In this document: positions 10,258 to 53,543 of the stretch, piece by piece
Layout: each line of letters opens with the position of its first letter
Position numbering within the stretch: the first letter of the stretch is position 1
Notes under the pieces: model-generated
What the model was told of the DNA's origin: nothing
Database searches by the model: none
What the model saw: the letters and a program-made list of their open reading frames with translations, nothing else
Position numbers and translations under genes: made by a program
Virus record (IMG/VR): IMGVR_UViG_2884379107_000001
DNA: 64,000 nt
DNA from: a virus
Strand: one strand, 5' to 3'

Positions 10258-13200
10258 TTATAAAATACCCTTTGCCCGAAGGCCGTCATTCAGCCCATTG
10301 ATCGTCCCGTTCATCTTATCAAGTAGTTCATTGGTCTTTTCCAGCCGGGCCGTGTTGGTATCGATTCGGTTGAGGGCCAGTAACTGCTGGTTCATGGTCG
10401 CATTGACCGATGCCTGACCAATCCGAATGGCGTTGATCTGACCCGCCAGCACAGATGCCGTTTCCTCCGTTACGCCTTTGATAGCGCCCGACAAAGCCGT
10501 TCCCTGGCTGGCTTTTGAGCCGGTTGACTTAAAAATATCCAGCCCGTATTGCTTGGCCGCATCCTGCGCGGAGGCTAACCCATCGTTGAATAGCTTCGTC
10601 AACTCATCGGCTTTACCAAAGAACCTTCCAAAATCATCCACCCAGTTATTATCCCCGTTAGGGCCTACACTGGCTTCGAGTTCTGCTTGTAACTGATCAA
10701 ACTGTTTGGAGAAAACCTGATTAAAGATTAACTGAGACAACAGGTTATCCAGAATCTTCGAGACTGAATCCCCAAAGGCCTGCGCAGATGAAGTGCCGTC
10801 TTCAAAGGCCCCGACCAGCGCATCACGCAAATCACTACCCAGTGAACCGGCCAAAGTGCTGATTACTTGGGTTATTTTTTGGTGAGCCTCATCAATTTGT
10901 TTTTGCCACTCTATTGTGGTTTGAACGAGGGCTTTTGTGCTGTCGTCAAGTAAATTATTGTCTATAAGACTCTGAGCAAGGGAGACATTGAGTTCGTCTA
11001 CTCCATCTTTCGACTTCTGAATCAGGTTAGGGTACAAAGCCAATAGGCTTCCAAACTCATCTGCCTTTTTGGTTGCCCCGCCAAATAGTGAGGTAATTCC
11101 ACCCACAATTCCACCCACCAAGCCACCTATTACGGCTGTGACAGGGGCCGCAATACCACCAACAAGCGCACCGATAGCGGCACCCGTTGCGGCTCCTGAA
11201 CTAATCAATTCGAGTGCTGATTTACTATCAAGGACATCCTTTAGCCCCTCTTTCGCCCTCCCCTGTTGCAGTTTTTTAAGTGACTCCTGAAATTTTAGTT
11301 GTGCATCATTGTATTGATTGATGTCATCTTTCAACTCGCCAATGCTATCCTGAACAAAGGCATTTCCTTTGCTTTTTGTCTGCAATCCCAATTGCTCATT
11401 AAGGAGTAGATTATACTGCTGTTGTTGATTGATGAGCGATTGATAGTAATCCGTTTCGGCTTTCTTTCGCTTTTCGGCTGCACTAGTGATAGCTGAAAAA
11501 ATGCCGACCACCCCCTGAATGATTGTTCCGTATAGCTGGGATTTGTCAGCACCCGTTTTAAGTGCCTTGTTAACCAAATCCATGTTAGAGGCTAGGTTAA
11601 CAAGTATGTTACCTACCTCGCCAGCCGAACCACCAACCTGTGAAAGCGCCTGACCAAATTGCCCGATATAGGACGAATACTGGCCAATGATTTTCTGCAA
11701 GCCCGTTCCGCCAGCCTGATTATTTAATTCGTTAAGGTGAGCTAGAGCCTCCCTGTATAGCTCATTTTCAGTGCCAATGGTTGATTTTATTTTGTCAACT
11801 AGTTTTTGCTGCCTTTCTATCTCAATCTTTTGGCGTTTTTCACCCTCAGCTAAAATTGCCTTAGTCGTGTTTTTGTATTCGTCGGTTTGTTCGATTTGAC
11901 GACGCTGGAAGTCTTCAAGTGCCTGCTTTTCGTCTGCATTAATAGCATCTAAGCCCTCCTTATACTCCTGACCTCGATTGTTAACGTAACGCTTATCCAG
12001 CTCAGAACGTAATTGGTCATATTGTTTTTTAATAGCCAATTGCTGCTGTTCCGAACCTGCATAATTGACCAGAAACTGATTGAGCTGGTCTTTTAATTGC
12101 TGTTGGGTCTGGACAATTTCAGTGGCCACTAGCCGCCGAATCTCAAAATCCTCTTTAGAGATTGGTTTTTTATCAAATAGCTCACTTTGTTTCTGATTGA
12201 GAATAACAAGGTAATCGGAAAGGCTACCCGCTTCCTGCTGAGCTTTTTGTAGTCCCTCGTTAAAGGCATCAAGTGCCGTTTTTTTACCAACTATGTTACT
12301 ACGTTGATCAAGCAAGGTACCTAGATTGCCCGTCTGACCGGGTGTTAGCCCTGCATTATCCCGTTCGTTTTCAAGGTTTGCAATTTGAGTGTTTAGGTAA
12401 TCTAAATAGGATTGACCCGATACGATCAGACCCGCAAACTGTCTGTCGGAAGCCTCTTTTCCGTACGCTTCGACCCACTGTGTATAAAGCTCGTATTGCT
12501 TTTGCTTTTCGGCTAATTCTTCGTCAAAGGATTTTACGGCCAGTTTTTTCCTAACTTCTTCTGCCTGCTGATCAGCCGCCAGTTTTTTGGCATTTAACTC
12601 ATTGAGTTTAGCAATATCGGTTTTTGGAGTCTTCTGAATGAGTTCATCCATTTTCTTGCTGATGGACTCATAATACGAGATACTACCAAAGGGGCCGACC
12701 TTGTCAGCGTCTTTTTCGCTTTTGGTTTTTTCACCCGTCAACCGACGACGCTGCGCTTCAAGTGTATTGATTTGCCGCTGTATGGTCGCATTTTTGGCAT
12801 CAGAATTTTCTAGACTTAACTGCTCTTTGTGGGCCGATATGGCCTCATCTAATTGCTTAATGGTTACCGCCCGAACGGCTTGCTTCGTGGTTTCAGCCTT
12901 AACGGTAGCATTGGCCGTTTCATCCAGAGCCTGTTGTTCTAACTTTAACTGCTCGCGGTAATCCTGCTCTTGTTTAGCTTTGTCAGCATTGAGTTTTCTA
13001 TTCTGTTCGGTAATTGCTTTTGCTGCATCAAAAGTACCTTCACTGCCCGCCTGACTAAGGTAAAGCATTGCTTTGTCTACAAAGCCAATTTCATTCTTAC
13101 CAGCTTTGGCTTGAGATTCCCGCTGAAAGGATTCCGTAAACTTTCGGTCAAGTTCCTGTTGTTCGTATTTTCGCTTCAGTGCATCGACATACTCATTGAT

Positions 13201-14523
13201 AGACTTCGTGCCAGCCTGCGTTTTAATGCTATCCAGGGTTAAAGCGCTGAGGTGTTCAGGGGAAAGGGCGATTAAGTCCCTGAGTGCCTTATTGCGGGCA
13301 TCTCGACTTAATTTTTCATTGTTAATCGTGGTTTTTAACTGTTCGATTTTTGCCCGCTCTGTATCCGTCTGAGCATTTGCACTTTCTCTGGCTTCCCGCA
13401 AATCCTGTTCTATCTGTTGGGTAGCCGTTAGCTCCTTTTTATAGACAATAATGGCCGTTGTCAGGGCTATAATAGCCGTAGCCGCCAACACCCAGGGATT
13501 AGCAGAGGTGGCCAGATTAAAGGCAATCTGAGCATCTTTGGCACTGCGTATCGTTGTGGCCAGACTTAGCCACGCCTGAACGTTTCCCGCAATATTAGCC
13601 GCGGCCTGAACAATAGCTGTAAGGGCTATGGCACTTTTATAGGCCCCATAGGTTGCGATTAATATCTTTAAGGGACCTAAGATTTGCTCATAACTTTCAA
13701 CTATATCAGTTGCGCCAGAAATAATACTCACCAAAAGGTCTTGATTATCCTTGCCAATCTGATTTAGCATGCCTTTCCAGGCATCAGCCAAATTAGAGGT
13801 TAATCCCGTCAGCGATTTGGCCTGTTCGGCCATTAAGCCGCCAAAATTGAGCTTGCCTGTGCCATCCACAAGACTTGTGATCGCCTGCTCAACTTCTTTG
13901 AAGCCTATTTTGCCAGAAGCGACCATTTGCCTTATGTCACTTTCATTTACCTTTAGTAAACGAGATAATTCTGGAGTCAGATTTATACCCCTCTCTATCA
14001 GTTTGTTAAGGTCATCTTGCTGCGCTATTCCCTGCGTTTTAATCTGGCCGTATGCCGCAACTAACTCAAGCAAATTTGAACCAGTGCCAGCCGCAATATC
14101 TCCCAATGTGGTGAGCGTAGGTATGATACTCTGCACACTGAACCCGTAGGCCAACATTAACTTTTGAGCTTTGGCTATCTCATCAAGTTCAAAAGGGGTT
14201 TTGGCGGCAAATTCAATACCTTGCTTTAAAAATGCATCGGCTTTTGATTTGCTACCTAACAAAACTGTGTAAGCGACCTCTAAAGCCTGAACCTCTCCCC
14301 GAACTCGAATTAATTGTTGAGGCAATTCCGACAAGCCAGCGAAAGCAAATGCACCCGCGGCCAACCGGCCCAAGTTTTTGAAAGAATCATCAATTTTCCC
14401 AGTCTCCCGAACGGCGGTAGTGGACAACCCCAATATTCTTCTTTCCATTAGGTCCAAGCGGTTCATAAACTGAGAATCGTTTATGATCGCATCGAAGGAC
14501 AGGGCACCCGAATTGGAGGTCAT
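10258..14523 (-). CDS. Tape measure protein (complete, 1421 aa)
   Basis: N-terminal tape-measure motif (FAAKTPFEL...LGDIAAG...YGQIKTQG...DLNKLIERGI), long coiled-coil region, Gly/Ala-rich hydrophobic segments. Lies upstream of Dit and Tal. Confidence 0.92.
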   Translation of the reverse strand: MTSNSGALSFDAIINDSQFMNRLDLMERRILGLSTTAVRETGKIDDSFKNLGRLAAGAFAFAGLSELPQQLIRVRGEVQALEVAYTVLLGSKSKADAFLKQGIEFAAKTPFELDEIAKAQKLMLAYGFSVQSIIPTLTTLGDIAAGTGSNLLELVAAYGQIKTQGIAQQDDLNKLIERGINLTPELSRLLKVNESDIRQMVASGKIGFKEVEQAITSLVDGTGKLNFGGLMAEQAKSLTGLTSNLADAWKGMLNQIGKDNQDLLVSIISGATDIVESYEQILGPLKILIATYGAYKSAIALTAIVQAAANIAGNVQAWLSLATTIRSAKDAQIAFNLATSANPWVLAATAIIALTTAIIVYKKELTATQQIEQDLREARESANAQTDTERAKIEQLKTTINNEKLSRDARNKALRDLIALSPEHLSALTLDSIKTQAGTKSINEYVDALKRKYEQQELDRKFTESFQRESQAKAGKNEIGFVDKAMLYLSQAGSEGTFDAAKAITEQNRKLNADKAKQEQDYREQLKLEQQALDETANATVKAETTKQAVRAVTIKQLDEAISAHKEQLSLENSDAKNATIQRQINTLEAQRRRLTGEKTKSEKDADKVGPFGSISYYESISKKMDELIQKTPKTDIAKLNELNAKKLAADQQAEEVRKKLAVKSFDEELAEKQKQYELYTQWVEAYGKEASDRQFAGLIVSGQSYLDYLNTQIANLENERDNAGLTPGQTGNLGTLLDQRSNIVGKKTALDAFNEGLQKAQQEAGSLSDYLVILNQKQSELFDKKPISKEDFEIRRLVATEIVQTQQQLKDQLNQFLVNYAGSEQQQLAIKKQYDQLRSELDKRYVNNRGQEYKEGLDAINADEKQALEDFQRRQIEQTDEYKNTTKAILAEGEKRQKIEIERQQKLVDKIKSTIGTENELYREALAHLNELNNQAGGTGLQKIIGQYSSYIGQFGQALSQVGGSAGEVGNILVNLASNMDLVNKALKTGADKSQLYGTIIQGVVGIFSAITSAAEKRKKAETDYYQSLINQQQQYNLLLNEQLGLQTKSKGNAFVQDSIGELKDDINQYNDAQLKFQESLKKLQQGRAKEGLKDVLDSKSALELISSGAATGAAIGALVGGIAAPVTAVIGGLVGGIVGGITSLFGGATKKADEFGSLLALYPNLIQKSKDGVDELNVSLAQSLIDNNLLDDSTKALVQTTIEWQKQIDEAHQKITQVISTLAGSLGSDLRDALVGAFEDGTSSAQAFGDSVSKILDNLLSQLIFNQVFSKQFDQLQAELEASVGPNGDNNWVDDFGRFFGKADELTKLFNDGLASAQDAAKQYGLDIFKSTGSKASQGTALSGAIKGVTEETASVLAGQINAIRIGQASVNATMNQQLLALNRIDTNTARLEKTNELLDKMNGTINGLNDGLRAKGIL

Positions 14524-14736: not shown

Positions 14737-15330
14737 TTACAAATGTGATAGCAAAGCAAGTTGAGTGGGCCGAAACATGACAACATCATAAACAAGGGGG
14801 CTTAGATTGGGATCTGCCTGAACCTTTTGCCTTCTAACCTCAACCTCAACCCCACCCTTAATCCATACATCTGAAACACTACGGGTGGACATGTACTCCT
14901 GCCCAAAATGCTTTGTGAGGTATTTACTTAAAATTAATGAACCGGCTGGCGTAGCACTTGTAGTTCCATGTGCAAGTAGTTTCAAGGCCACCAACTTATT
15001 CTGGTCAAACAAGGGTATAAATAAGGCATCTACGCTACCTGGTAAAGAGTCTGACTTAATTTCCAGAGCATAATCAGCTTTGCTATACCTAAATAAAGTT
15101 TTATTAGCCACCAATCGACTAAAATTATAATCATAGTCCTGCTTACTCATACCAAATCTAAAGCCCAAGATGATGTTGTTATCAACTTTCGCCTTAAGGT
15201 TTTCCCTTCTGACACTATCAATTTGTTCGCCAGAAAAGGCAAATGATTTGGTTGACTCGGATTCAGTTTTTTTTGAGCAACCCCATAACAAGGAGAGGCT
15301 AAATAGTAACAAAACAAGGCGTACCTTCAT
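14737..15330 (-). CDS. Lipoprotein moron (superinfection-exclusion candidate)
   Basis: Start MKVRLVLLLFSLSLLWG|C at 15330 with a lipobox Cys. Lies directly upstream of the TMP gene. Confidence 0.75.
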   Translation of the reverse strand: MKVRLVLLLFSLSLLWGCSKKTESESTKSFAFSGEQIDSVRRENLKAKVDNNIILGFRFGMSKQDYDYNFSRLVANKTLFRYSKADYALEIKSDSLPGSVDALFIPLFDQNKLVALKLLAHGTTSATPAGSLILSKYLTKHFGQEYMSTRSVSDVWIKGGVEVEVRRQKVQADPNLSPLVYDVVMFRPTQLALLSHL

Positions 15331-15378
15331 AGGTCTAGGGAATTTATTTCCAGTCCCCAATATAGATGAAGGTTTGTA

Positions 15379-15433
15379 GTTACGCAACGTGAAAATTACA
15401 TGTAGCTACATAAAATATTGCTTCTAGGTAAAG
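15379..15433 (+). repeat. Copy 1 of the GTTAC...CATGTAGCTACAT...GGTAAAG site
   Basis: CATGTAGCTACAT-AAAATATTGC-TTCTAGGTAAAG at 15399-15433, with GTTAC 20 bp upstream. Confidence 0.7.
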
Positions 15434-15539
15434 GAAGGGATTAACATATCATTTTAGTGTTGTGGGTAGGTCTTAACCAATTGCCTCTTGAAAGGAGGAA
15501 TTTTTGAGATTAAGACACGAGCCGCTTACTGGCTATCTA

Positions 15540-15576
15540 CCATTTTCGTACTTTACTTCCCAAAGTACGAAAATGG
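15540..15576. repeat. Palindrome CCATTTTCGTACTTT-N7-AAAGTACGAAAATGG
   Basis: Perfect 15-bp arms with a 7-bp spacer. Related copies at 17668-17696 and 17765-17791. Confidence 0.75.
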
Positions 15577-15800
15577 CCCCTTGACTCCTCTCCTACTCGT
15601 ATTGGGCATTGTGGTTGTGGAAGCCGACAAACTAGTGATGAACTTACTGCTACGGAACGATTAAATTTAAAAACCAATATTTATTGATATTTTTTATGTA
15701 AGTTGCTTACCTCTTAGGTAATCACTTCACTCTGAGGCTCCTTCTCCGCCCCCTGCATTCTAAGCTGTCGGTCAAGCTACTTCATTACTAACCCTAGTAA

Positions 15801-16514
15801 ATGACACGGCATGCCAACGAATGGTCTGGTTCGAACCAACAGACTTTCTCCCGCTTTTATGATACCTACGCCCCTAAGCTATGGGGCCTTATTCTACGCG
15901 CCAAGCTGCCTACTTCGCGGTCCGAACGTATTCTAAGCAGCACCTTCAAGAAGGCTTGGCCACAGCTTAGCCAGCAGACATCAACTAGTGCGTCTACGTT
16001 CACCTGGCTGCTCACCTTAGCTTACGGCGAGGGATTGCCGCCTATTCAACCAGCGGAACTCATGAAAAACGACAATCGTTCATCGCAACCTGTATACGTT
16101 CTACTGGCAGGCTGTTGCCCCGACGATCAAGCCCTGCTCGCCCAGAGTTTGAAAACCAGTATGCCTCAGATCGAAATTGGCTTTATTCCAACAGTCAATC
16201 AGACATTACAGCATTTGCAAAACACGTCGCTTGAATCCAGGAAATTTCCTCGGCTACTGCTATTGAATGTAGAGAGAGCTGATGGCCAGTCCAATTGGCC
16301 GATTTTACAACAGATCAAAGTCAGTTATCGTCAATTACCCATTGTGCTTATTAGTACGGATCAACAAGGTGAACTAGCGCTACAAGCCTATGACCTGGGT
16401 GTTAATTCATTTTTGGTCAAGTCGTTAGACTTGGATGAATGGCAAAAGAAACTGGATGCGCTTGCCGATTACTGGCTTTCCATTGTTACCTTACCTAATC
16501 AACAAAAAAGCTAG
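15801..16514 (+). CDS. ECF-sigma region-2-like fragment fused to a degenerate receiver domain
   Basis: N-terminal FSRFYDTYAPKLWGLI...TFKKAW...FTWL. C-terminal LPIVLIST...AYDLGVNSFLVKSLD. The usual phospho-Asp position reads LLLLN. Confidence 0.65.
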   Translation: MTRHANEWSGSNQQTFSRFYDTYAPKLWGLILRAKLPTSRSERILSSTFKKAWPQLSQQTSTSASTFTWLLTLAYGEGLPPIQPAELMKNDNRSSQPVYVLLAGCCPDDQALLAQSLKTSMPQIEIGFIPTVNQTLQHLQNTSLESRKFPRLLLLNVERADGQSNWPILQQIKVSYRQLPIVLISTDQQGELALQAYDLGVNSFLVKSLDLDEWQKKLDALADYWLSIVTLPNQQKS

Positions 16515-16551
16515 AGCGATTTAAAGGCCTGTCTTCCTACTTACTTGAGCT

Positions 16552-17061
16552 ATGGTATTTTTCTTAACGACGATGGATCAACAGGGGGCGTCTCGCGAGT
16601 TCTCCCTGATGGGTGACTTAGAGGTAGCCTGTAAACTCTTTGATCATATCGCCAAAAAAGGCCATATCCTGCTTAAAGCTAGCGTGGTAGATGGCGACCG
16701 ATCTAGTGATATTCCCCTTGAATCATTTTATGGACCAGCTAGCTGGCCCGTTATCGAAGCCCTTGAACGGGAATGGAGCAACATCTTGAGTAAGCCTATT
16801 AACATTCGATCTGTTTGTGCCCGCAAACTTCCTGATATGATTTCTCGGCGAGTGGAGAGGCATCAAGCGTGCATTTTTCAGTTAGAGCAAGCTGTTGTCC
16901 TAGCCGAGCAACGGCTTCAACGCGTTTCTGCCACCATTCTGCGCGAACCCCACCGGGGTCGGATGCTGCATCAACTTGAAGGGGTTCTAAATCGCCACCA
17001 GCAAAACCTAGTTACCGAGCGAGCGAGCCTATCCAAATTCCTGGATCAAGCGACTCACTAA
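16552..17061 (+). CDS. Hypothetical protein (paralog of 17361-17627)
   Basis: The N-terminal 80 aa align by eye with the 17361 ORF. Confidence 0.65.
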   Translation: MVFFLTTMDQQGASREFSLMGDLEVACKLFDHIAKKGHILLKASVVDGDRSSDIPLESFYGPASWPVIEALEREWSNILSKPINIRSVCARKLPDMISRRVERHQACIFQLEQAVVLAEQRLQRVSATILREPHRGRMLHQLEGVLNRHQQNLVTERASLSKFLDQATH

Positions 17062-17075
17062 ACAATCTATTAGTT

Positions 17076-17264
17076 ATGGAGAAAGACGTGACACTATTCT
17101 GGCAAGTGTATAAACAAACAGCTAGTATCGAAACATGCATAGCGGAGCTAAAGCGAAAGGGCTTTAGTCAACTGGCTACCATCAAGGTATTATTGGTAGT
17201 ATCTGCTATAAGCCTGGTAGACGCGGATAAACTAGTCTCCAATTCACTGGCTTGGAGCAACTGA
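17076..17264 (+). CDS. Small hypothetical protein
   Basis: 62-aa ORF in the same operon. Confidence 0.5.
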   Translation: MEKDVTLFWQVYKQTASIETCIAELKRKGFSQLATIKVLLVVSAISLVDADKLVSNSLAWSN

Positions 17265-17360
17265 AATTGGGGTAGTAAAACCCCGCTCGCTAAGTTTCAA
17301 CTCATTGGTCAAACCCTTACAAGTGGTCATATGTATTAGGACTATATAACCTGATGGACT

Positions 17361-17627
17361 ATGATCTTCTTCATAACTACCCTCGATCGACAAGGTGATT
17401 ACCGGCATTTTCACTTTGACCTGCCCGAATTAGAAACCGGCCTTGAGGTGTTGAATAGAATTGTTGCCAAAGGGGAAGTTTTAGTCAACGTGACTTTGAT
17501 CGACGGTAGCAGCATCATCCACCTGCCTATAGCTGCTTTTGATGGCCAGCCTTGCCAAGCAGCTATTCATGCGTTAGAGCTGGATTGGCGTGAACTTCTC
17601 AACAGTACAATTGACAAAAAGGGTTAG
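17361..17627 (+). CDS. Hypothetical protein (paralog of 16552-17061)
   Basis: MIFFITTLDRQG...ALELDWRELLN versus MVFFLTTMDQQG...ALEREWSNILS. Confidence 0.65.
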   Translation: MIFFITTLDRQGDYRHFHFDLPELETGLEVLNRIVAKGEVLVNVTLIDGSSIIHLPIAAFDGQPCQAAIHALELDWRELLNSTIDKKG

Positions 17628-18014
17628 TTCTACCCAGCATGTTAGCATGAATACGGCCATTCTGCCGTTTCGTACTTTTCTTCTTAAAGTACGAAAATAG
17701 GCATGCTTTTAGGCTTCCAAACCCCCTTGAAACTTCCTATTTGGACGTTTTGCAATGGATTTATTTTCGTACTATTCTAGGAAGTACGAAAGCGGGCTGT
17801 GTCGCTTTAAACGCCCGTTTTTACGAGACGGCCTGTCTAAGCTGAAAATGATATTTATAGAAGTTACTTAAGATCTCAAATTGCCATCTCGCGAAACAAC
17901 GTTTCCTTTTTACTATCACACTTGAGTTTGTGAGTAATTGGAAACTTTTTTCTATACTACTAATGCTGGTGTTGACTCTACCATTAATGCACTACATTAA
18001 AATGTAGAATAAGT

Positions 18015-18070
18015 GTTACCTAAGCGGGCCTAAATCATGTAGCTACATCAAATATTGCCGTTGGGTAAAG
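18015..18070 (+). repeat. Left 56-bp inverted repeat of the nuclease cassette
   Basis: GTTACCTAAGCGGGCCTAAATCATGTAGCTACATCAAATATTGCCGTTGGGTAAAG is about 80% identical to the reverse complement of 21861-21916. Confidence 0.8.
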
Positions 18071-18073
18071 AAA

Positions 18074-18107
18074 TAGGCCGACATCGTTTTAGGGGATTGT
18101 CGGCCTG
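18074..18107. terminator. Hairpin terminating the nuclease operon
   Basis: AGGCCGACA...TGTCGGCCT stem directly after the 18114 stop. Confidence 0.65.
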
Positions 18108-18113
18108 TTTCTG

Positions 18114-19514
18114 TTAATCAACATATTGCCATTTAAAACCAGCATGAGTGGTTTTTGGTCGATAGTCTTTTATTGCGGAGTCGTAAGCCTTGCCTCTGCA
18201 AGCACACTGCACACTACCAATACAAATACCTAACTCTTCTTTTATATCCTCTATTCGCTCCCACACCTTTATGACTTCACTAGACAATGGATCTATTTGG
18301 GCAATCTTTTTGCGCCATTTTTCATTTATGCCTTTATTTAGAGCCATTCGCCTTTCGGGTGTTATTGGCCTGCCAAGTTTGGCGCGATGTTCGGGCGAAA
18401 GGGTTTTGCCTATGTGAGATTCTGAAATTTTTCGCCTTGTCGCATCGGATGCCCTTCGCCCCCTATTTGGGTTTTCATTGTGAGCATAAAAATGTTTTAA
18501 TTTGGCCCTCATAACTTCTACTTGTTCGGCACTCCTTTTGACGCCCCTGCACGAACTGGCAACCTTAGCGATATTGTAGCCTTTTTTAGGGTCATAGCAT
18601 TGGTAAAAATCCATCCAATACTGTTCGCGTTCATCCAACCTAGAAAGGTCTTCTACTCGCTCCAAAACTTCAAGATGAAAATTACCGATGCCATACTTTT
18701 TTAAGGCATTGGGGAATAATCCTTTATTTCTTGATTCTCGGTGTCGGTAATATCGTTGGTAAATATCCTGAGCCTGACCAACGTAAATTTTTCCATTAAT
18801 CTTATTAGTAAACTTATAGATGCCCGCAAAACTACATTCGGGCAAATCTTGCGGGTCATAGTTAGGATTAAATAGTTGTCCTGCTGGTACTTCCTTTTTC
18901 GGCCAAACTTGCCGAATCTCAACACCATTCTTTCTAATAGCATCCCGAACAGTATTGGCTGATACCCCTAAACGCTTGGCTATTTGTTCGGAAGATTCGC
19001 CATTTTCATAATCAATGGCTACTTGTGCTTGCTGTTCCTCGGAAAGGCGGTAAAGGCTACGCTTTTCAATTCCCGACTCTCGAATAAGCTTAGATACAAT
19101 TACATTACTAAATCCAATCTCTCTGCCAATTTCGTAACTGTTTTTCCCATCAACGTAAGCATCCAAGATGTATTTTTTTTGTTCATCGGTAAGGTGCTTA
19201 CGAGTGACGACGTAGCCCGCTTCATTCATTATATTCGTAACGGTTCCCGTACACACATCAAACGCTTTGCTAATCTCAAGGCTGGAATTTCCATCCAAGT
19301 AGGCGGCAACTATTTGTTGCTTAATTTCCGGGGTAAGTATGGCCTTTTTCTTATTATACTTTTGTCTGGTAATACCAACCTCATTAACTATTCGGTTGAC
19401 AATTCCGCTACTCATTTTAAATAATGCCGCAACCGACTTAATTGTGCCACCGGCTAGGTAAGCATTAATGATTGAATCATTTGACACATTAGCTTTGGTG
19501 CATTGATTAGCCAT
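18114..19514 (-). CDS. GIY-YIG homing-type endonuclease with four N-terminal HTH repeats and NUMOD3/NUMOD1-like motifs
   Basis: AGIYKFTNKINGKIYVGQAQDIYQRYYRH; repeated Y.DG.SS.EI...G.S...V units; RRKISESHIGKTLSPEHRAKL; C-terminal HAGFKWQY. Confidence 0.88.
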   Translation of the reverse strand: MANQCTKANVSNDSIINAYLAGGTIKSVAALFKMSSGIVNRIVNEVGITRQKYNKKKAILTPEIKQQIVAAYLDGNSSLEISKAFDVCTGTVTNIMNEAGYVVTRKHLTDEQKKYILDAYVDGKNSYEIGREIGFSNVIVSKLIRESGIEKRSLYRLSEEQQAQVAIDYENGESSEQIAKRLGVSANTVRDAIRKNGVEIRQVWPKKEVPAGQLFNPNYDPQDLPECSFAGIYKFTNKINGKIYVGQAQDIYQRYYRHRESRNKGLFPNALKKYGIGNFHLEVLERVEDLSRLDEREQYWMDFYQCYDPKKGYNIAKVASSCRGVKRSAEQVEVMRAKLKHFYAHNENPNRGRRASDATRRKISESHIGKTLSPEHRAKLGRPITPERRMALNKGINEKWRKKIAQIDPLSSEVIKVWERIEDIKEELGICIGSVQCACRGKAYDSAIKDYRPKTTHAGFKWQYVD

Positions 19515-19866
19515 TTTTCCTCTTCTTTTCCTTCTTTAATTTACGAAAACTCTTCGGGTAACTCTCTGTCTGCTCATGGCAGGAATGGCATAGGGTATGG
19601 CCGTTGTCGGGACACCATAAAGCCAAGCAACTAATAGCATCCTCCACCGTACCAAGGCCGTTCATCCTGACAAGGGTAGACAACTCCATCAGGTGATGAG
19701 CCTCAATCACTCGCTTACGCCCGTTACGCTTGCCACATTGTTGACATTGAAAATGGTCACGCAAAAACACACTTCGTTTCCAGGCTTCGTACTGAGGCAA
19801 TTTGCGAATGAGTTTAACCAAGCCCGTAACACTCATACGGGCTTGGTTTTTTGTCTCACTTTTCAT
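19507..19866 (-). CDS. HNH endonuclease
   Basis: VFLRDHFQCQQCG...IEAHHL...DNGHTLCHSCH. Confidence 0.88.
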   Translation of the reverse strand: MKSETKNQARMSVTGLVKLIRKLPQYEAWKRSVFLRDHFQCQQCGKRNGRKRVIEAHHLMELSTLVRMNGLGTVEDAISCLALWCPDNGHTLCHSCHEQTESYPKSFRKLKKEKKRKNG

Positions 19867-20615
19867 TCCTCCACGTACTTGAGTTCCGCCATTATTAAGC
19901 CGTGGATTTTGTCTAAATGCCCATAGCGCTCAATGGCATCCAGCATGGATTCTCCACTCAAGCGGATCAAGCGGTATACGTTAATACTCCACACCTCGTT
20001 AAGCCGCTTATACAGGTAATTGTAGGTTTCTCCCTGTTCGGCTCCATGATACCCACAGTACTCGTTTACCCGATGCTTCACCGCTTGCCGCAAATCCGAA
20101 GCAGGTCGTTTGGGGGGATTGGTCAGCGAAGGGGTACGTTTTAGGTGAGGAGGAATAACCGATGGGCGAATTAGGCCCGAACTCCCTTTTATACTTTCCA
20201 CCTCCGCCCGTAGTTGAGCCAGTAGATTGCCCTGCTCCACCAACGCATGGGCCTGTTGCAGTAAAACCTGTTCCACTGACAGTAAAACCGGAGAAAGCTG
20301 TTGTTGGGCTTTCCGTTCACACTCCAAGAAGTACCGTCGGATTTCCTCCCCTTTATCGGTTCGGGCAAGCATGGACAGGCGTTTGGCAAAATCCACTGTC
20401 AAATGGAAATCCTTTGTCGCATTACCGCTCGACACTAGGTCGAACCCCTCCCAGTCTTCACCCTCTTTGCCGTAGGGATTATTAATGATGTTCTTTTTCG
20501 ACCAGCGCGACCATTGCGAAGGGTCGAACCCTAAGAAGTCATACAACTCTCGAGCGGAGGCTACCACCGACGAACCTTGTTCGTTGTTGGTAATTCGGAT
20601 GAGGTCGTTCATCAC
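19863..20615 (-). CDS. AntA/AntB-type antirepressor with a C-terminal ORF6C-like domain
   Basis: VASARELYDFLG...DFHLTVDFAKRLSMLARTDKGEEIRRYFLECERK. Confidence 0.85.
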   Translation of the reverse strand: MMNDLIRITNNEQGSSVVASARELYDFLGFDPSQWSRWSKKNIINNPYGKEGEDWEGFDLVSSGNATKDFHLTVDFAKRLSMLARTDKGEEIRRYFLECERKAQQQLSPVLLSVEQVLLQQAHALVEQGNLLAQLRAEVESIKGSSGLIRPSVIPPHLKRTPSLTNPPKRPASDLRQAVKHRVNEYCGYHGAEQGETYNYLYKRLNEVWSINVYRLIRLSGESMLDAIERYGHLDKIHGLIMAELKYVEE

Positions 20616-20959
20616 TTAGCCTTAGGGTCTTTTCGGTAGTTGCTGATAAAACTTTTCGTCCGATCTTCCACGGAAAAAATACTGACTTGTGGGTTAGAGG
20701 CAAGGTAATTGGCCTCAACAAGTTGAGCGGCTAACTCAAAAAGCGCATTCTGAATTTCCTGATAGGACTCTACCTCTTGCAGGTGACCCGACGCGGCTTC
20801 GTCGTCACCCTTTCCAAAGGCCAGCAATAGGGCGCGAATGGAATTATTCTTACTTAACTCCAAGGCCCAATAAATACGGGTAGCCTCGGAATCTTGCTCG
20901 GGGTCGGTCGCAAAGGAAACGTTTAAGGTGCCTATAAACTCTGCTGTTGGCTTAGTCAT
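20612..20959 (-). CDS. Hypothetical protein
   Basis: 115-aa ORF translationally coupled to both neighbours. Confidence 0.65.
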   Translation of the reverse strand: MTKPTAEFIGTLNVSFATDPEQDSEATRIYWALELSKNNSIRALLLAFGKGDDEAASGHLQEVESYQEIQNALFELAAQLVEANYLASNPQVSIFSVEDRTKSFISNYRKDPKAK

Positions 20960-21500
20960 GACTCACCTCCTTTTTAGGCTTAAAAGCAGTGGTGTAGCCT
21001 GAATTGGTATTGAAGAACTCAAATTCCTCTTTTAGCTTATTAACATCATTAAGATGAGAAACAAAATCGCGTATCTCATACCGATACTGATTTAGGTCCA
21101 CATTTTCACTACCTACCCAGTGCGAAAACATTTCGACCTGTAGACCTTCGCTTGAAGGAGTATCCCGAAAGTTCCACATTCGATACAACAGATCGAATAA
21201 GCCACTGAGGGTCTCTTCGTCACTGGCTATTTTTTGAAGGAAAGCCTTTTGCCAATCATCCGGCATAGAAAGGGTTTTGGCCGCATTTTGGGCCATTTGT
21301 GGAGGGGTGTTTGCATTCCTTCCCCTACCCACGTAACTTTGTTCCGTGTTACACATAACTCGAAAGGTTAAATTGTTGCACATTGCCCCTTTGCTGAGTC
21401 TGCCAAGATTTGCAGCATTGGGGTTTTTATTAACTATCAATTCATTGCATACTGTCCAGCGGGCAACCCTATAGGTATTATATCGCCTTTTCTGCATCAC
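20952..21500 (-). CDS. Hypothetical protein (start uncertain)
   Basis: First gene of the coupled operon, downstream of the XRE gene. Confidence 0.55.
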   Translation of the reverse strand: MMQKRRYNTYRVARWTVCNELIVNKNPNAANLGRLSKGAMCNNLTFRVMCNTEQSYVGRGRNANTPPQMAQNAAKTLSMPDDWQKAFLQKIASDEETLSGLFDLLYRMWNFRDTPSSEGLQVEMFSHWVGSENVDLNQYRYEIRDFVSHLNDVNKLKEEFEFFNTNSGYTTAFKPKKEVSHD

Positions 21501-21558
21501 ATTAACATAACAAATATATCAATTGTCAACATATATATCAACAATAAGAATAAAAAAA

Positions 21559-21765
21559 TTATTGATAGCGTACAATTAGGCCCAATCCTAAAACCTCCCC
21601 GATTTTTTGCAAAGTCACAATAGTTATATTCTGACTACCACTTTCATATCTACTATATGCAGATTTGGAGATACCTAATTTATCAGCCATTTCTTGTTGG
21701 GTCATTCCCTTGGCCTTCCTAGCCTCCCGTATCAACTGCCCTACCTGCTCTGTGATCTCTGACAT
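21559..21765 (-). CDS. XRE-family HTH transcriptional regulator
   Basis: IREARKAKGMTQQEMADKLGISKSAYSRYESG. Confidence 0.9.
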   Translation of the reverse strand: MSEITEQVGQLIREARKAKGMTQQEMADKLGISKSAYSRYESGSQNITIVTLQKIGEVLGLGLIVRYQ

Positions 21766-21860
21766 AACCCCTTTATCAAAATCTTATTTCGTATAAAGGT
21801 AAGCAGTAGACGTTTATCTACAGTAAAGTGAAAGTTTCTTTCATATAAATGAACTCCTCG

Positions 21861-21916
21861 CTTTACCAAGTGGCAACATTTGATGTAGCTACATGTTTTA
21901 GCCCCACTTGGGTAAC
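21861..21916 (-). repeat. Right 56-bp inverted repeat of the nuclease cassette
   Basis: Reverse complement is GTTACCCAAGTGGGGCTAAAACATGTAGCTACATCAAATGTTGCCACTTGGTAAAG. Confidence 0.8.
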
Positions 21917-21980
21917 TACTATCAATAGGTAATCACTCTATCTATTTGCCTTTAGAAAGGAAAGTACGATCCACCAAACT

Positions 21981-22280
21981 ATGAAGCTGCTTGAAGCAAT
22001 TTTTCATTACACAAAAGACCATCATTTGGAGCTAATAGGTCTACTAGTAGTCTATTTTTCTCTTATTGTCACCATTTAGTAGTATTTAGGCCAAAGAAAG
22101 CCCGAAGAGAAAGACAAGAGGTTCAATAATTATCATAGGCTTCTAAAAGAGCCTATCGGCGAAAACCCAAATCAAACAATGTATTTATCCAGGCAAGTAG
22201 CCATTGTATTTGAACCTAGAAATTACCCCGAATACAACGGAGTTAAAGAACGAATACTCATTGAGCTTCTTCAAACTTAG
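21981..22280 (+). pseudogene. Disrupted small membrane-protein gene
   Basis: MKLLEAIF...LIVTI stop, then protein-like sequence continues (KDKRFNNYHRLL...RQVAIVFEPRNYPEY) in a disrupted frame. Confidence 0.4.
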
Positions 22281-23664: not shown

Positions 23665-24489
23665 TTACTTAATCAATTTTTCAGGTGGTGACAATAATGT
23701 TGCAGTATTATATCCAAAATGGAGGGTGTTAAATAACATAACGAGCACAAGTAAACAAATACCAAAGAAAAGAATACGATCAAATATATTAGAATCTTTG
23801 CTACGAACACCATAATAAAATAGTACAGATATAGAGATAGCAGTTACTAAAAAAATAATATCACCATATTCTAGTTTTCTTTCCGGCTCAAATACCTTTT
23901 GAAACCCTTTGGGTGCTCCTTTTATTCTAGTATCTATATACCAATTACCGTTTACTTTGCCAGTATAAATAATAGAAAATGTTGCCCCATCATCAGCTTC
24001 TAATCCCTCATCCCCTTCAATCTGTAAATCAACTTGATCAAATTTACCTTTTACCTGATCTGGGTGAAATGTCTGCGAAAATTTCAATTCAGGACGTGTG
24101 GTTGCAATCATCTTGGCCTCTAAAATCCTAATAGGAACTGAGCATTTTATGGATATTGGTTTATCCCGAGAAAATGCTGACTTATCTAAGTATTCATTGC
24201 CCGCATTCCAAAGAACAACTGTAGCGGCCCTAACATTCTGAACCTCAACCGAATCATAGTAGACTTTGATTTTTGAATTTTGTCGACTTTCAGTTACTAC
24301 CACATCGGATATAACTCTATACACAGGTTTAGCTACCTTCTCTGACTGATAAGCCTGATAAAGTCCATATATACCAAGTACTGTACCAAGTATGGTCAAC
24401 CATCCCATAAGTGTAGGGTTGGTCAAAGGGTTGAACTTTGGTTTAGAGGATACTGGTAGTTGTCCCTGTTGAGGTAAGTCTTCGTCCAT
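23665..24489 (-). CDS. Membrane protein (one N-terminal TM, beta-rich domain, two C-terminal TMs)
   Basis: Hydrophobic segments near aa 25-45 and 210-262. Confidence 0.7.
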   Translation of the reverse strand: MDEDLPQQGQLPVSSKPKFNPLTNPTLMGWLTILGTVLGIYGLYQAYQSEKVAKPVYRVISDVVVTESRQNSKIKVYYDSVEVQNVRAATVVLWNAGNEYLDKSAFSRDKPISIKCSVPIRILEAKMIATTRPELKFSQTFHPDQVKGKFDQVDLQIEGDEGLEADDGATFSIIYTGKVNGNWYIDTRIKGAPKGFQKVFEPERKLEYGDIIFLVTAISISVLFYYGVRSKDSNIFDRILFFGICLLVLVMLFNTLHFGYNTATLLSPPEKLIK

Positions 24490-24903
24490 TTAGTGTGAGA
24501 TAATTTGCTGTACTAAGAACGACAAACTCCCTTATCATCGCAAATGTATTCCCGACTACCGGCAAGATTTGCTGTATATACATGATTTAAACCGGTTGGT
24601 GCAACTACCCATTGTTCAAATAATCGTCCAAAATGTTTTCACTATGATCTCTTAAACAAAACTATTCTGGTATTGTGATGCAGATCAAGAGGCAACCGCA
24701 GAAACTACGACTAGTGGCACAAAAACTACAACACCTTAAAAATCAACCAATTACTAAAGTTGCTCACAAAAATACTAATGATTTTTCTGCGAATACGCGT
24801 TTCAAGCTTGACAACTCCTTGACAAGGCGCTACCTTTATTTAACAATCCATTTGCCCTCACTACAGACGGAGCGCACACAATCTTTTAAAGACGTGTACT
24901 CCT

Positions 24904-29379: not shown

Positions 29380-29898
29380 TCACAAGTACAAAGTTTTTCT
29401 CCTCTTCAGGCGAACAAATTGATAGCGTTAGAAGGGAAAACCTTAAGGCAAAAGTTGATAGCACTATTATTTTGGGCTTTAAGTTCGGCATGAGTAAGCA
29501 GGACTACGATTATAACTTTAGTCGGCTTATAGCCAATAAAACCTTATCTCATTACAGTAAAACCGAATACGACTTAGATATTGAAGCAGACTCACTACCT
29601 ACCTTTGTAAGTGGCCTATTTACCCCCATATTTAATAAAAAATGAATTAGTTGCACTAAAGATGTTAGCACATGGAACGACTAGCGCCACACCTGTAGGC
29701 TCAATAGTTTTGAGTAAATACCTTTCCAAGCATTTTGGGCAAAAGTACTTGTCCGCTCGAAGTATTTCTGATATATGGATAAAGGGAGGGGTTGAGGTAA
29801 AAAGAGAAAAGGTTCAGACTGATCCGAACCTAAGCTCTCTTACTTATGATGTAGTTATGTTTCGGCCAACTCAACTTGCTTTGTTGGCGCATCTCTAA
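29380..29898 (+). pseudogene. Frameshifted, 5'-truncated inverted copy of the 14737-15330 lipoprotein gene
   Basis: GEQIDSVRRENLKAKVD...MSKQDYDYNFSRL, then a frameshift near 29636, then NELVALKMLAHGTTSATP...FRPTQLALLAHL. Confidence 0.85.
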
Positions 29899-29972
29899 TT
29901 TTCTCCTCCTAATACCTGGCATAAAGGAAGGCATAGCAAAGTGTTTATAGTTTAACAAAGATTCAACAAAAG

Positions 29973-37016: not shown

Positions 37017-37517
37017 TTACTGCGTGAACTGGATGGGCCCCACACCTGATTTGGTGGGTTGCAGCGCCGTCACCGTGATGTCAAGCACGAACAACGTGTC
37101 ACGCGTCAATTCGCCGTTCAGTTTCGCCGTCAGCTGTCCACGTGGGATCGTAATGGCCTTGAAACCGTCCGAAGGAATGATCTTGATCGTTTGCTCGATA
37201 GCGACCACCGAAGCGGGCATATTCCAGACGCGGGCAGGTGACGTACCCGACGCCGTTCCGCCAAACACAGCAATCATGGTATCCACATCAGGGTTAGCCA
37301 GTGACCATGTAAGAGTAATAGCGCCCGGTGTTGATTTGGTGTATACGGCCGCATCCACCTCCTCCACTTTAAATTCGGTAACTGTGGCATCGGCCTGATT
37401 GAGCTTAGCCGTTTTCTCCAGCGTGTAGCCCAGTGAGGTCAGGCTGGTACCTGGCCCACCATCACCAGCGATCGCACCGACCGTAATACTGGTAATACCA
37501 ATTGTGTATAGTGCCAT
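37017..37517 (-). CDS. Major tail tube protein
   Basis: Follows the tail terminator; SLGYTLEKTAKL...EFKVEEVD...IPRGQLTAKLNG. Confidence 0.75.
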   Translation of the reverse strand: MALYTIGITSITVGAIAGDGGPGTSLTSLGYTLEKTAKLNQADATVTEFKVEEVDAAVYTKSTPGAITLTWSLANPDVDTMIAVFGGTASGTSPARVWNMPASVVAIEQTIKIIPSDGFKAITIPRGQLTAKLNGELTRDTLFVLDITVTALQPTKSGVGPIQFTQ

Positions 37518-39412: not shown

Positions 39413-40495
39413 TTAAGACTGAACAGTCGTTGAATCGAGCAAATAGATTTGATCGACGTTGGAGATAACCGGAACCACACGCGCCTGGGAGGAGGTGAAC
39501 TCCGCCAATGGATCGTTCTTCCGATACTTCGATACCAGTATGAAGTTGCCCGCTTTCTGATACGTCACGTTCGTCACGGGATGACCTTCTTCTGCTAGTT
39601 TGGCATACACAAGCGTACCTACCTGGGTCGAGGTTAGGAATACAGCCGCGCCGGTTGCCCAGGGCTTCACCGCCGTTTGGGTACCGTTCTTTTCGTAGCG
39701 AACCGAACGCTCGACGATCTGGAAGGTAAAGCCGTAGCGATCCGAGACAAACGAATTCATCTGGCTAAGCGACGGAGCCGGAATAGCCGAACCCACAAAA
39801 CTCTGCGAGAAGGCGAAGAGCTGTTTTGCCTGCGTGGTGTTGACCAGGTTATTGAACGCTGACCGGTCCAGCATGCAGACCGTGATGGTATTACCATCCG
39901 CACTGGCTTTATCCAGAATGCGTTGGATATCATCGAACGGGGTTGCCGTCGAAGCCGACGACCACAATACAGCCACACCGAACTTATTGGCGCTTGCGTA
40001 CCCATAATCAATCCGAATACCTGTACCCACGTTCTCCGTGTCTTCAATCAGGGTAACCCCCGTTGACAGACCCCGCAGAAACATTTCTTCGCAGCGCTCG
40101 TATACGCCGGTAATGACCTTCGGGGTATCGGCAAACAGCTTGGCCACAATCTGCTGATCAGATGCACCCGTAGCCACCAGCGTATCCAGATCGGTTAGTT
40201 GCCGCTCGTTGAGTTGCAACTTCATACCCAGCTTAGGAATGTCTCCGTTGGCCTTGCTGATCGAGTCACGCTTTTTGAGCGGTAACGACGAATCCATCGC
40301 CACCACATCCGCCATAATCGCGGTGTTAGCCGTGTTGATGGCCTCCCATTTGCCGGTTACTGACAGATCTTCCCGAAGCATGCTCCGGTGCAGGTACGTC
40401 AGTGGGTTGTTGGTACCGTTGAGCGTTTCAACGATCCGAATGGTAATGCCGGGGAGGTATTTGGCAACCCATTGAAGAAATAACGATGTCTCCAT
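39413..40495 (-). CDS. Major capsid protein (phage capsid E-like)
   Basis: 360 aa; MADVVAMDSSLPLKKR...GDIPKLGMK. Follows the scaffold and decoration genes. Confidence 0.85.
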   Translation of the reverse strand: METSLFLQWVAKYLPGITIRIVETLNGTNNPLTYLHRSMLREDLSVTGKWEAINTANTAIMADVVAMDSSLPLKKRDSISKANGDIPKLGMKLQLNERQLTDLDTLVATGASDQQIVAKLFADTPKVITGVYERCEEMFLRGLSTGVTLIEDTENVGTGIRIDYGYASANKFGVAVLWSSASTATPFDDIQRILDKASADGNTITVCMLDRSAFNNLVNTTQAKQLFAFSQSFVGSAIPAPSLSQMNSFVSDRYGFTFQIVERSVRYEKNGTQTAVKPWATGAAVFLTSTQVGTLVYAKLAEEGHPVTNVTYQKAGNFILVSKYRKNDPLAEFTSSQARVVPVISNVDQIYLLDSTTVQS

Positions 40496-44424: not shown

Positions 44425-45117
44425 ATGACGGACATCCAGAGACGATTTGTCGAAGAATATACGAAAGATTGCAAGGGGGCAGCGGCAGCGATTCGGGCAG
44501 GGTATAGCAAAGCCACAGCCAAACAAACTGCGTGGGAACTCAAGCAAGATCCAGAGATTCAGGTGGCAATCAAAGAACGATTAGCGCTACTCACCATGAC
44601 CGCTGATGAGGCTACCAAGCACATCAGTGACATTGCGGGTACACGGCTAAATCAGTTCATGGTGATCAAAAAGGTTCTTCGCCGGGAAATGGTTCGCAAG
44701 CCCCTGAAGGCGATCATTAAAGAACTTGAAGCCAAGATAGCCTTTGAAGAGGAGTATGCACACCTGGCCGACCTCGACAAAAAAGAGCAGATAAAACACA
44801 AAGCCATTCAGAAAGAGCGGGAACGGGATCTGATCCGATTAAAGCTTGAACTCAAGGAAAAGCCCAAGGCCTACCGGGACGTCGAGGGCGAACCTCAGTG
44901 GGTGGAACGGGCCGAACTGGACCTGGTAGCGCTGGCCAAAGCCGAAGAGGAGGGCAACATCTTTGAGTTATCGTTCACCGAGTTTGGCCCCAAAGTAAAA
45001 ATGTATTCCGCAGCGGATGCCATGGAAACGATTCTAAAACTTAATGGCAAGCTGATCAATCGGCACGATCATACCAATAACGGCAAATCCTTTGGGGATT
45101 ATTTAATGGAATCATGA
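44425..45117 (+). CDS. terS: Terminase small subunit
   Basis: QRRFVEEY...AAAIRAGYSKATAKQTAWEL; upstream of TerL. Confidence 0.88.
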   Translation: MTDIQRRFVEEYTKDCKGAAAAIRAGYSKATAKQTAWELKQDPEIQVAIKERLALLTMTADEATKHISDIAGTRLNQFMVIKKVLRREMVRKPLKAIIKELEAKIAFEEEYAHLADLDKKEQIKHKAIQKERERDLIRLKLELKEKPKAYRDVEGEPQWVERAELDLVALAKAEEEGNIFELSFTEFGPKVKMYSAADAMETILKLNGKLINRHDHTNNGKSFGDYLMES

Positions 45118-51607: not shown

Positions 51608-51796
51608 CTATCCATCCGCCACTTTCTTCACCTGATCCGGCGATACATTCTTTACCTCCCCCTTTCCATCGAGCTTGACTGAGATGCGCCCGGATTCGGT
51701 CCACCTTAGCACCGTTCCTTTCTGGGTGCCCCGGTAGTAGCCCTGCACCCGGATTTCCACACTGACCCGATCACCGGGTGAAATGACTGGCTTCAT
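51608..51796 (-). CDS. Small SH3/KOW-like protein
   Basis: [14 protein letters not shown]...[19 protein letters not shown]; ATGA overlap with the umuC stop. Confidence 0.6.
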
Positions 51797-53076: not shown

Positions 53077-53078
53077 GG

Positions 53079-53543
53079 CTAGAACTTTTGCAGGTTGAAC
53101 GTAACGACTCCCAGTACACTAAAATTCTCCCCTGGGTGTACGTAGATGGGTAAGTACCGGGGATTGGAGGACTCCAAGACAATTAGCTTATCGACATACC
53201 GAATCCGCTTGACGGCGTGGCCCCCGTCGTACCAGACAATGACGATCTTGCCATCGGCGGGCGGGCGGGAACAATCCACAATCAGCACATCGCCCGGCTC
53301 GATGCGGTCACCCGTCATCGAATCCCCCGTGACCCTGACGAAGTAGGTCGCTTCGGCATTGGTAATGCAGAGGTCATTCAGATCACAGACCTTCTCGATG
53401 TAATTCTCAGCGGGACTTGGAAAACCACCTTGTACCAGACTGGAAAAAAAGGGAATCAAGTATCTGGATGAAGCTGTTGCCTTCACCATATCCCCTTCCT
53501 CAATATGGTCTATGTGGTCTATCATAGCGGTGTCAAAAATCAA
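53079..53543 (-). CDS. umuD: UmuD / S24 peptidase
   Basis: [10 protein letters not shown]...RVTGDSM...AVKRI. Confidence 0.92.

Follow-up and report, generated by a model that had tools for sequence, protein, structure and literature searches.

A repeated 56-bp element in a Spirosoma prophage

The DNA analyzed here, hereafter the window, is the 64,000-nucleotide (64-kb) stretch of the IMG/VR virus record IMGVR_UViG_2884379107_000001, a siphovirus-like prophage in an 8.66-Mb Spirosoma genome. It harbors four copies of an intergenic element of 55-56 bp, namely c1 (15379-15433, + strand), c2 (18015-18070, + strand), c3 (21861-21916, - strand) and the degenerate c5 (24553-24607, - strand; core ATGTATATACAG), the last of which was found by profile search. 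Two more copies lie elsewhere in the genome: the strong copy c4 (C1:4124433-4124490, + strand), about 800 kb away from the window copies, and the half copy c6 (C1:3308955-3308995, - strand), which consists of the core and the right arm and was retrieved by genome search. All four window copies sit within a block of about 20 kb (14.7-34.5 kb) that is lower in G+C content (0.27-0.45 versus ~0.52) and is located between the genes of the tail tube and the tape measure.

The three sites c1, c2 and c3 are genuine and far beyond chance. The 23-nt core CATGTAGCTACATNAAATRTTGC is present exactly at each of them, and 100 dinucleotide shuffles yielded no match even at three mismatches; the 12-mer ATGTAGCTACAT occurs exactly three times in the window, compared to 0.09 occurrences expected with one mismatch allowed. 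Direct reading, the core match and the shuffles all uphold the coordinates of the three sites that a preliminary description of this DNA had given. Alignment of the inverted pair c2/c3 revealed 48 identical positions out of 56 (85.7%), so that the pair stands as described, whereas the earlier figure of about 80% identity was slightly low. Copy c1 is the outlier, with an identity of 69% to c2 (40 of 58 positions) and likewise 69% to c3.

The best conserved stretch of the element reads TAAAnC-ATGTA-NN-TACAT-(C/G)(A/T)AAT(A/T)TTGCC, of which the half-sites ATGTA and TACAT are nearly invariant and the central dinucleotide varies among GC, TA, GA, TC and AC; in c1 to c4 the center is the palindromic GC. 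In the palindrome ACATGTA-NN-TACATGT, the conserved half-sites are thus about one helical turn apart around a variable center, as in the operators of dimeric helix-turn-helix (HTH) proteins, which supports an operator reading. The flanks of the 12-bp palindrome are A-rich on the same strand on both sides (CTAAAAC and CAAATGT) and not inverted. The outer arms, GTTACC-AAGCGG and CCGCTT-GGTAA, are complementary at 73.5% of the cells, compared to 29-50% when the partner is slid by one to three columns, and four arm pairs have changed on both sides, a number that 12 of 500 shuffles also reached. The quasi-symmetry of the outer arms claimed previously is therefore real, albeit imperfect. With its perfect 12-bp palindrome and largely complementary arms, the element has the capacity to form a stem-loop; the arm complementarity fits a hairpin and a symmetric protein site alike and cannot tell them apart.

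The right flank of the palindrome reads TAATTTTG in several relatives, including the XRE-linked ones, namely the copy of Spirosoma telluris, c6, and the copies C7b and C14c of Spirosoma arboris. This octamer equals the Bacteroidetes sigma-A -7 consensus TAnnTTTG, which is located at -12 to -5 (PMC9723704).

Gene organization around the copies

Copy c3 lies about 95 nt upstream of the start of an XRE/Cro-like HTH protein of 68 residues (21559-21765) and is co-oriented with the operon headed by this gene. From the XRE gene onward, this - strand operon encodes a conserved XRE partner without family match (20952-21398; 148-182 residues, N-terminus NTEQxYVGxG), a 115-residue protein, also without family match (20612-20959), an AntA-type antirepressor (19863-20615), an HNH endonuclease (19507-19866) and a homing endonuclease (18114-19514) composed of four N-terminal HTH repeats, a GIY-YIG domain and NUMOD3. 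A -7-like box, TACCTTTA, is found on the same strand at 21794-21801, 28 nt before the start codon of the XRE gene.

The variable cassette between c1 and c2 (15801-17627) is carried on the + strand and consists of a response-regulator-like (receiver-domain) protein (15801-16514) and three small open reading frames (ORFs; 16552-17061, 17076-17264 and 17361-17627). Copy c1 heads this unit, and c2 occupies its 3' end, about 45 nt past the stop codon of the convergent GIY-YIG gene. The space from c2 to this gene holds a G+C-rich hairpin, GGCCGACA...TGTCGGCC (18076-18112), with T-rich runs on both strands, which we read from the sequence as a predicted bidirectional terminator; S. arboris has the same arrangement. 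To the left of c1, the lipoprotein gene (14737-15330, - strand) runs divergently, and the left half of c1, read on the - strand, gives TAATTTTC, a -7-like box about 55 nt before the lipoprotein start. Copy c5 lies 64 nt upstream of the gene of a 274-residue membrane protein (23665-24489, - strand), which it heads.

Every copy in the window is accordingly oriented like its own transcription unit: c1 and c2 like the + strand response-regulator unit, c3 like the XRE operon and c5 like the membrane-protein gene. The preliminary description had stated that orientation does not track gene direction; as this is not the case, the argument it drew against a promoter or operator fails. Its statement that no transposase or recombinase lies inside agrees with our domain search, in which the ORFs from c1 to c3 yielded no Pfam domain of a recombinase or transposase.

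Outside the low-G+C block, the prophage displays the tape-measure gene (10258-14523), with further tail genes below 10 kb, and the genes of the tail tube (37017-37517), the major capsid protein (39413-40495), the small terminase (44425-45117) and the portal (46682-48130), followed by UmuD/UmuC-like genes (51793-53543) and a tyrosine integrase (53820-55175), 32 kb from the motif copies. A pair of attL/attR sites at the tRNA-Leu gene was considered and rejected, as 450-1100 has no repeat in common with the integrase side. In the genome some 6 kb past the end of the window (C1:4990.3-4991.2 kb), a CI-like repressor of 231 residues with HTH and S24 domains is encoded divergently from an 80-residue gene product and a 260-residue antirepressor-like one, across a 120-nt spacer full of TTGCGAA/TTCGCAA repeats. 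This locus is probably the true immunity switch of this or a neighboring prophage.

Distribution of the element and its gene context in relatives

None of 200 genomes of the same family contained the 23-nt pattern, one match with two mismatches excepted. When genome, viral and metagenome collections were scanned with a 19-base pattern, only S. telluris HMF3257 and S. arboris HMF4905 proved to have copies of full length, in both cases inside IMG/VR proviruses; the other matches have only the pattern itself in common, and about four chance matches were estimated in the 596 Gb. A sequence model run against 54 Spirosoma genomes gave strong matches only in the genome of the window, S. arboris (~12 copies), S. 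telluris and genome G229, in addition to partial copies in a few other Spirosoma genomes. Among isolated phages, blastn found no match to positions 17900-22000 of the window. As far as the scanned sequences go, the element family is confined to Spirosoma prophages and integrative elements. A palindrome of another context, ATTCATGTAGATACAT, is found downstream of fpg in five Spirosoma genomes (L041, L044, L045, L046 and L050), where it ends 4 nt short of the start codon of a pirin-like gene, and has only the core in common with the prophage motif.

Gene context was compared for 17 copies, which are intergenic. A divergent gene lies on the left of 13 of them, and 11 have a co-oriented ORF that starts within about 150 nt on the right. 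Downstream of eight copies, about 100-150 nt away, is an XRE gene of 67-80 codons followed by the NTEQxYVGxG partner, and a ninth, core-only site precedes the XRE gene in genome G056. The XRE-partner pair itself was detected in 19 of the 53 other Spirosoma genomes searched, and continues downstream either into antirepressor and nuclease genes or into a tyrosine integrase. In S. telluris (L067:5488-7997) and G229 (L075:11428-14918), the motif, the XRE gene, the partner and a tyrosine integrase follow one another in the same direction, an arrangement in which the XRE module looks like a lysogeny/integration operon; the S. telluris integrase of this motif-XRE operon is 49% identical to the integrase of the window. 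In S. arboris C14 (L073:10295-11431), the motif-XRE-antirepressor operon ends with TnpB (OrfB_IS605 or Cas12f-like), at the place where other operons carry homing endonucleases. The chromosomal copy c4 has a different setting: on its left, an 89-residue N-terminal fragment of a TrwC-type relaxase (L071:10061-10330; C1:4124060-4124329) ends about 100 nt before the copy, and on its right the next large genes, from 540 nt on, encode a 1180-residue PAS histidine kinase and a LytTR-type response regulator.

In three operons, those of the window, S. arboris C14 and S. arboris C7, an inverted copy follows 45-50 nt past the last gene. This last gene is a homing endonuclease in all three, of the GIY-YIG type in the window and C14 and of the LAGLIDADG type in C7, and the N-terminal HTH repeat arrays of the two types are homologous (26% identity, E 3e-8). 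Compared to the window enzyme (18114-19514), the C7 enzyme (L064:4769-6106) has the same operon position and the common HTH array, with LAGLIDADG instead of GIY-YIG and NUMOD3, and thus represents a domain swap. The correlation between the distal copy and the HTH-array endonuclease is suggestive, with three cases of which two are closely related. No flanking inverted repeats were found in other XRE...GIY-YIG operons, and the IMG/VR relatives of the GIY-YIG protein match its catalytic part only. Both the proximal and the distal copies are probably under selection, because two S. arboris operons keep both, including the C7 operon, which has no blastn match to the window.

A replaced cassette and a chimeric copy

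Alignment of the window against the S. arboris C14 prophage revealed that the tape-measure and lipoprotein genes correspond up to position 15411, the last base of the palindrome of c1, and that the alignment resumes at 18015, the first base of c2, to continue through the nuclease operon at 72-75% identity. Between these two positions, the window contains the 2.6-kb response-regulator unit, whereas the same slot of S. arboris C14 is filled by an unrelated stretch of 1.07 kb with a DUF6169 gene on the other strand. The S. arboris counterpart of c1 consists of the left arm and palindrome only. By contrast, the right arm of c1 together with the leader that follows it (leader 15434-15512, + strand; matched region 15399-15512, which also takes in core sequence) is 79% identical to the chromosomal c4 locus. 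Since its left half matches the S. arboris half copy and its right half matches c4, c1 is, judged from these alignments, a chimera, the left arm and palindrome being orthologous to the S. arboris half copy and the right arm and leader paralogous to c4. Shared differences place the join inside CATGTAG|CTACAT.

Variation is seen at other junctions as well. In S. arboris C7, only a small lipoprotein gene lies between the tape measure and the c2-type copy, and each of the three phages has its own genes past the c3-type copy (AbiC in the window). On these comparisons, variable slots border the conserved XRE-nuclease module on either side, and motif copies lie where module and slots meet. The claim of the preliminary description that the copies bound exchangeable gene blocks is hence borne out by the point where homology stops, the point where it resumes and the chimeric c1, the boundary evidence being one clear case, that of the window versus S. 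arboris C14.

Two further observations concern the history of this region. A 158-nt non-coding stretch near the end of the response-regulator cassette (17659-17816) matches genome C1:4120387-4120545, which lies 3.9 kb upstream of c4, at 81% identity and holds two hairpins of the form TTTTCGTAC-loop-GTACGAAAA, with a third such hairpin in the c1 leader (15560-15600). As this stretch and the c1 leader both have their matches near c4, the c4 locus shares the start and end regions of the cassette. In addition, a 5'-truncated second copy of the lipoprotein gene is present at 29382-29899 (+ strand), inverted relative to 14737-15330 and 73% identical to the S. arboris gene, which suggests that a second related phage was involved in an insertion or rearrangement that gave rise to the 15-29-kb block.

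Proposed role of the element and alternative explanations

The reading that we favor, with due reserve and tentatively, is that the element serves as a reusable operator/promoter cassette of one Spirosoma lineage of temperate phages and integrative elements, and that it doubles as a linker for homologous recombination, similar to the promoter-early stem-loop (PeSL) cassettes of T4-type phages. In this model, ATGTA-NN-TACAT would be a protein-binding palindrome that abuts a weak sigma-A -7-like box within a longer imperfect dyad, and the copies stand where accessory transcription units begin, in the first place the antirepressor/nuclease operon led by the XRE gene. All copies would be bound by one dimeric regulator, for which the small XRE protein encoded some 100 nt downstream is the likeliest candidate, and several units would in this way be controlled jointly; the distal c2 would act as an auxiliary operator or as a roadblock at the convergent operon end. 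Since the same 56 bp separate unrelated genes, copies carried by relatives, whether co-infecting or resident, would recombine and swap the intervening blocks, presumably in a homologous rather than site-specific manner, and so yield the cassette-like mosaic.

The 68-residue XRE protein is the best candidate for the binder of the palindrome. In its recognition helix, Arg or Lys precedes YExG in seven of eight motif-adjacent XRE proteins, compared to three of 17 without the motif (our own count; the relatives are not independent). This apparent covariation of a base-contacting helix position with the presence of the motif is in favor of the XRE protein as the binder. Moreover, the multi-site operator that the preliminary description had kept as a fallback suits the gene context better than an inversion/excision system.

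Several findings weigh against the operator/promoter cassette. XRE genes in the window and its relatives have a -7 box of their own 18-28 nt before the start codon; that of the window, TACCTTTA, is probably the promoter of the XRE gene, so that the motif is not needed for this purpose. The box in the right flank of the window copies, which reads AAATATTG, AAATGTTG or AAATCTTG, is two mismatches away from TAnnTTTG, and no -33 TTG is found at the proper spacing (17-23 nt) from it. The core lies upstream (99-130 nt) at only six of the 23 XRE-partner loci examined, and at the other 17 no different palindrome fills its position, so that a simple model of an autoregulatory operator loses strength; we dropped general XRE autoregulation on this ground. 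Furthermore, c2 and its two counterparts in S. arboris have a terminator ahead of them and no gene to drive, and complementary changes between the arms are not expected of a simple operator.

The boundaries could also have been produced by an enzyme that acts on the element. In the broad form of this idea, which we consider doubtful, the 56-bp site would be the break site of modular homing endonucleases (HTH array plus GIY-YIG or LAGLIDADG domain) or the site of a recombinase supplied in trans, and breaks or exchanges at its central palindrome would actively shuffle defense and accessory cassettes between Spirosoma prophages without an integron integrase. Specifically for homing, the motif would be recognized by the HTH-repeat endonuclease at the operon end, and breaks in phages or sites lacking that enzyme would drive gene conversion and cassette exchange. 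The stop codon of the endonuclease is within about 45-50 nt of the distal copy in all three operons that have one, the HTH array has been kept homologous while the nuclease domain differs, and such breaks would account for the chimeric c1. Consistently, GIY-YIG relatives that match only residues 156/226-465, and so lack the array, show no inverted repeat spanning the operon, and motif operons without endonuclease (S. telluris, G229, c6 and S. arboris C14c, with integrase or TnpB ends) have no distal copy. Nevertheless, an active enzyme would be expected to cut the intact copies, at least four, that the host genome retains; a distance of 3.5 kb separates the proximal copy from the endonuclease gene, in contrast to known free-standing homing genes; elements without any endonuclease also carry many of the copies; and the L125 operon, with a GIY-YIG gene devoid of the array, still has a weak inverted copy (left arm and core) about 780 nt past the gene. 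With a sample of three operons, two closely related, we regard homing as unlikely. Less likely still are crossover sites for a trans-acting recombinase, either the integrase at 53820-55175 or an unlinked serine recombinase, with inversion between c2 and c3 and excision between c1 and c2. The join of c1 inside the palindrome, the existence of both kinds of half copy (left arm plus core; core plus right arm) and the half-sites around a variable dinucleotide within a quasi-symmetry of about 56 bp, a layout generally known from serine recombinases, agree with it, and TTGC followed by five variable nucleotides and GGTAAAG in the right arm recalls the IntDOT core layout. The integrase homolog in the motif-XRE operon of S. 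telluris likewise speaks for the internal integrase put forward in the preliminary description, but the c1 join lies about 15 nt left of TTGC, not at an IntDOT-like position, and there is no overlap of 6-8 bp between inverted arms as tyrosine recombinases need, the TTGC-N5-GGTAAAG arms being only weakly inverted. Moreover, no recombinase gene is linked to the copies, serine recombinases (PF00239) being encoded only at C1:4089262, 7371919 and 7405126 (4.09, 7.37 and 7.41 Mb); the palindromic GC center of c1 to c4 gives no polarity; and the orientation of the XRE-nuclease module relative to the tape-measure gene is identical in all three phages (window, S. arboris C14 and C7). A single chimera is equally expected from homologous exchange within the conserved 12-mer. 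The dedicated inversion/excision system proposed earlier is thus not supported, given the missing linked recombinase, the constant module orientation and the join inside the palindrome.

Two further explanations concern the element as a structure or as a mobile unit. As a structured nucleic-acid element, it would form an imperfect 56-nt hairpin in RNA or single-stranded DNA and act as an attenuator/insulator, a processing site or a recognized hairpin. The four arm pairs changed on both sides point in this direction, as the arms remain complementary despite change (T:A in c3 versus C:G in SarbA, matched indels in C7b, T:A at a more inward position in C14c); in addition, all window copies are on the sense strand of their own unit, and c2 is in a 3' untranslated position directly before the terminator. 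However, folding the copies with their flanks to minimum free energy gave no consistent structure, the z-scores being only -0.5 to -2.8; c1, c4, S. telluris and G229 have several arm pairs broken; conservation is highest in the 12-bp palindrome with its right flank rather than in the stem; and symmetric protein sites yield the same covariation signal. Rfam gave no match at gathering scores in the window, and only a chance-level match (E 0.19) in 15300-22100. We therefore consider a functional hairpin very unlikely. A small non-autonomous mobile palindromic element inserted between genes, akin to miniature inverted-repeat transposable elements or repetitive extragenic palindromes, would be short, dyad-symmetric and intergenic with several copies per genome, as is the case here (at least six in this genome and about 12 in S. 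arboris); yet target-site duplications are absent from the edges of c1 to c4, S. telluris and SarbA, the copy number is low (six in 8.66 Mb), the copies are confined to prophage or integrative-element DNA at a constant position relative to the XRE gene, and a matching transposase is lacking here, which makes this origin extremely improbable. Other known sites were considered and rejected: a LexA/SOS box of the host repressor, since the core occurs in the genome no more often than expected (10 found versus 11) and the host LexA-like/dinB intergenic and umuD upstream regions carry other palindromes; an integron attC site, by eye on spacing and box sequence, as the ends GTTACC/GGTAAAG are unlike the RYYYAAC...GTTRRRY boxes, the orientations are mixed and intI is lacking; and a sigma-54 reading, likewise by eye on the same two features.

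Little is known about the temperate phages that infect Bacteroidota outside the gut, and nothing has been established on the regulation or exchange of their accessory and defense genes. Here, one short sequence marks the heads of several accessory units, a cassette replaced between the prophages of two species and a recombinant joint at nucleotide resolution. If the element is an operator, it would define a small phage regulon and provide a candidate DNA target for the widespread XRE/partner pair; if it is the target of an endonuclease or recombinase, it would reveal a new route of cassette exchange in prophage defense islands.

Comparison with known systems

The stoperators of Cluster A mycobacteriophages are asymmetric, monomer-bound sites of 13-14 bp, with 20-30 copies per genome (PMC6550527, PMC9283540). 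The element resembles them as a putative repressor-type site at many intergenic places of a prophage, oriented with transcription and in part not at promoters. However, it is a symmetric palindrome within 56 bp, with four copies in 64 kb, and falls outside the stoperator class. Similar to OL and OR of phage lambda, related operator-like sequences are inverted a few kilobases apart around a regulatory module. Lambda, by contrast, has operator triplets at divergent outward promoters that flank the repressor gene, whereas in the window single sites point inward around an operon of Cro-like, antirepressor and nuclease genes, and the CI-like S24 repressor is encoded elsewhere.

In the core site of IntDOT, a conserved ...TTTGC is followed by a variable 5-bp coupling sequence (PMC2817482), and the right arm of the element likewise has ...TTGC and five variable bases, followed by an inverted arm that is imperfect. 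In layout only, the half-sites on either side of the variable 2-bp center recall serine invertases. Different from both systems, the element has no linked recombinase and no att-type junctions, and the three phages show no inversion polymorphism.

Free-standing homing endonuclease genes adjoin their own target, as in the intronless homing of T-even phages. The present arrangement is comparable, since no more than about 50 nt separate a GIY-YIG or LAGLIDADG gene from a conserved site, which is also found gene-free in related elements. It differs in that intact sites persist in the carrier genome, that the site is mainly at the operon end far from the endonuclease gene, and that cleavage is putative.

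The closest parallel to our operator/promoter cassette is provided by the PeSL cassettes of T4-type phages (Arbiol et al. 2010, PMC2839356; Comeau et al. 2014, PMC4122927). Both systems have a short repeated intergenic motif in which a host-type promoter element, putative in the present case, is joined to a sequence capable of forming a stem-loop. In both, the motif clusters in a hyperplastic accessory region, for the most part directly upstream of genes without known function, and falls on boundaries of insertion or replacement between related phages. The element differs in its -7-type box, as befits a Bacteroidetes host, which is degenerate in the window copies, and in its number, with four copies in this prophage compared to about 50 per T4-type genome. 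Furthermore, it belongs to a temperate phage, forms a 56-bp dyad with an operator-like palindrome, and has an inverted copy behind a homing endonuclease. Promoter and terminator activity as well as mini-circles, which belong to the PeSLs, are putative for the element. On this comparison, it would be the first counterpart of the PeSLs in a temperate phage of Bacteroidota, with features of its own.

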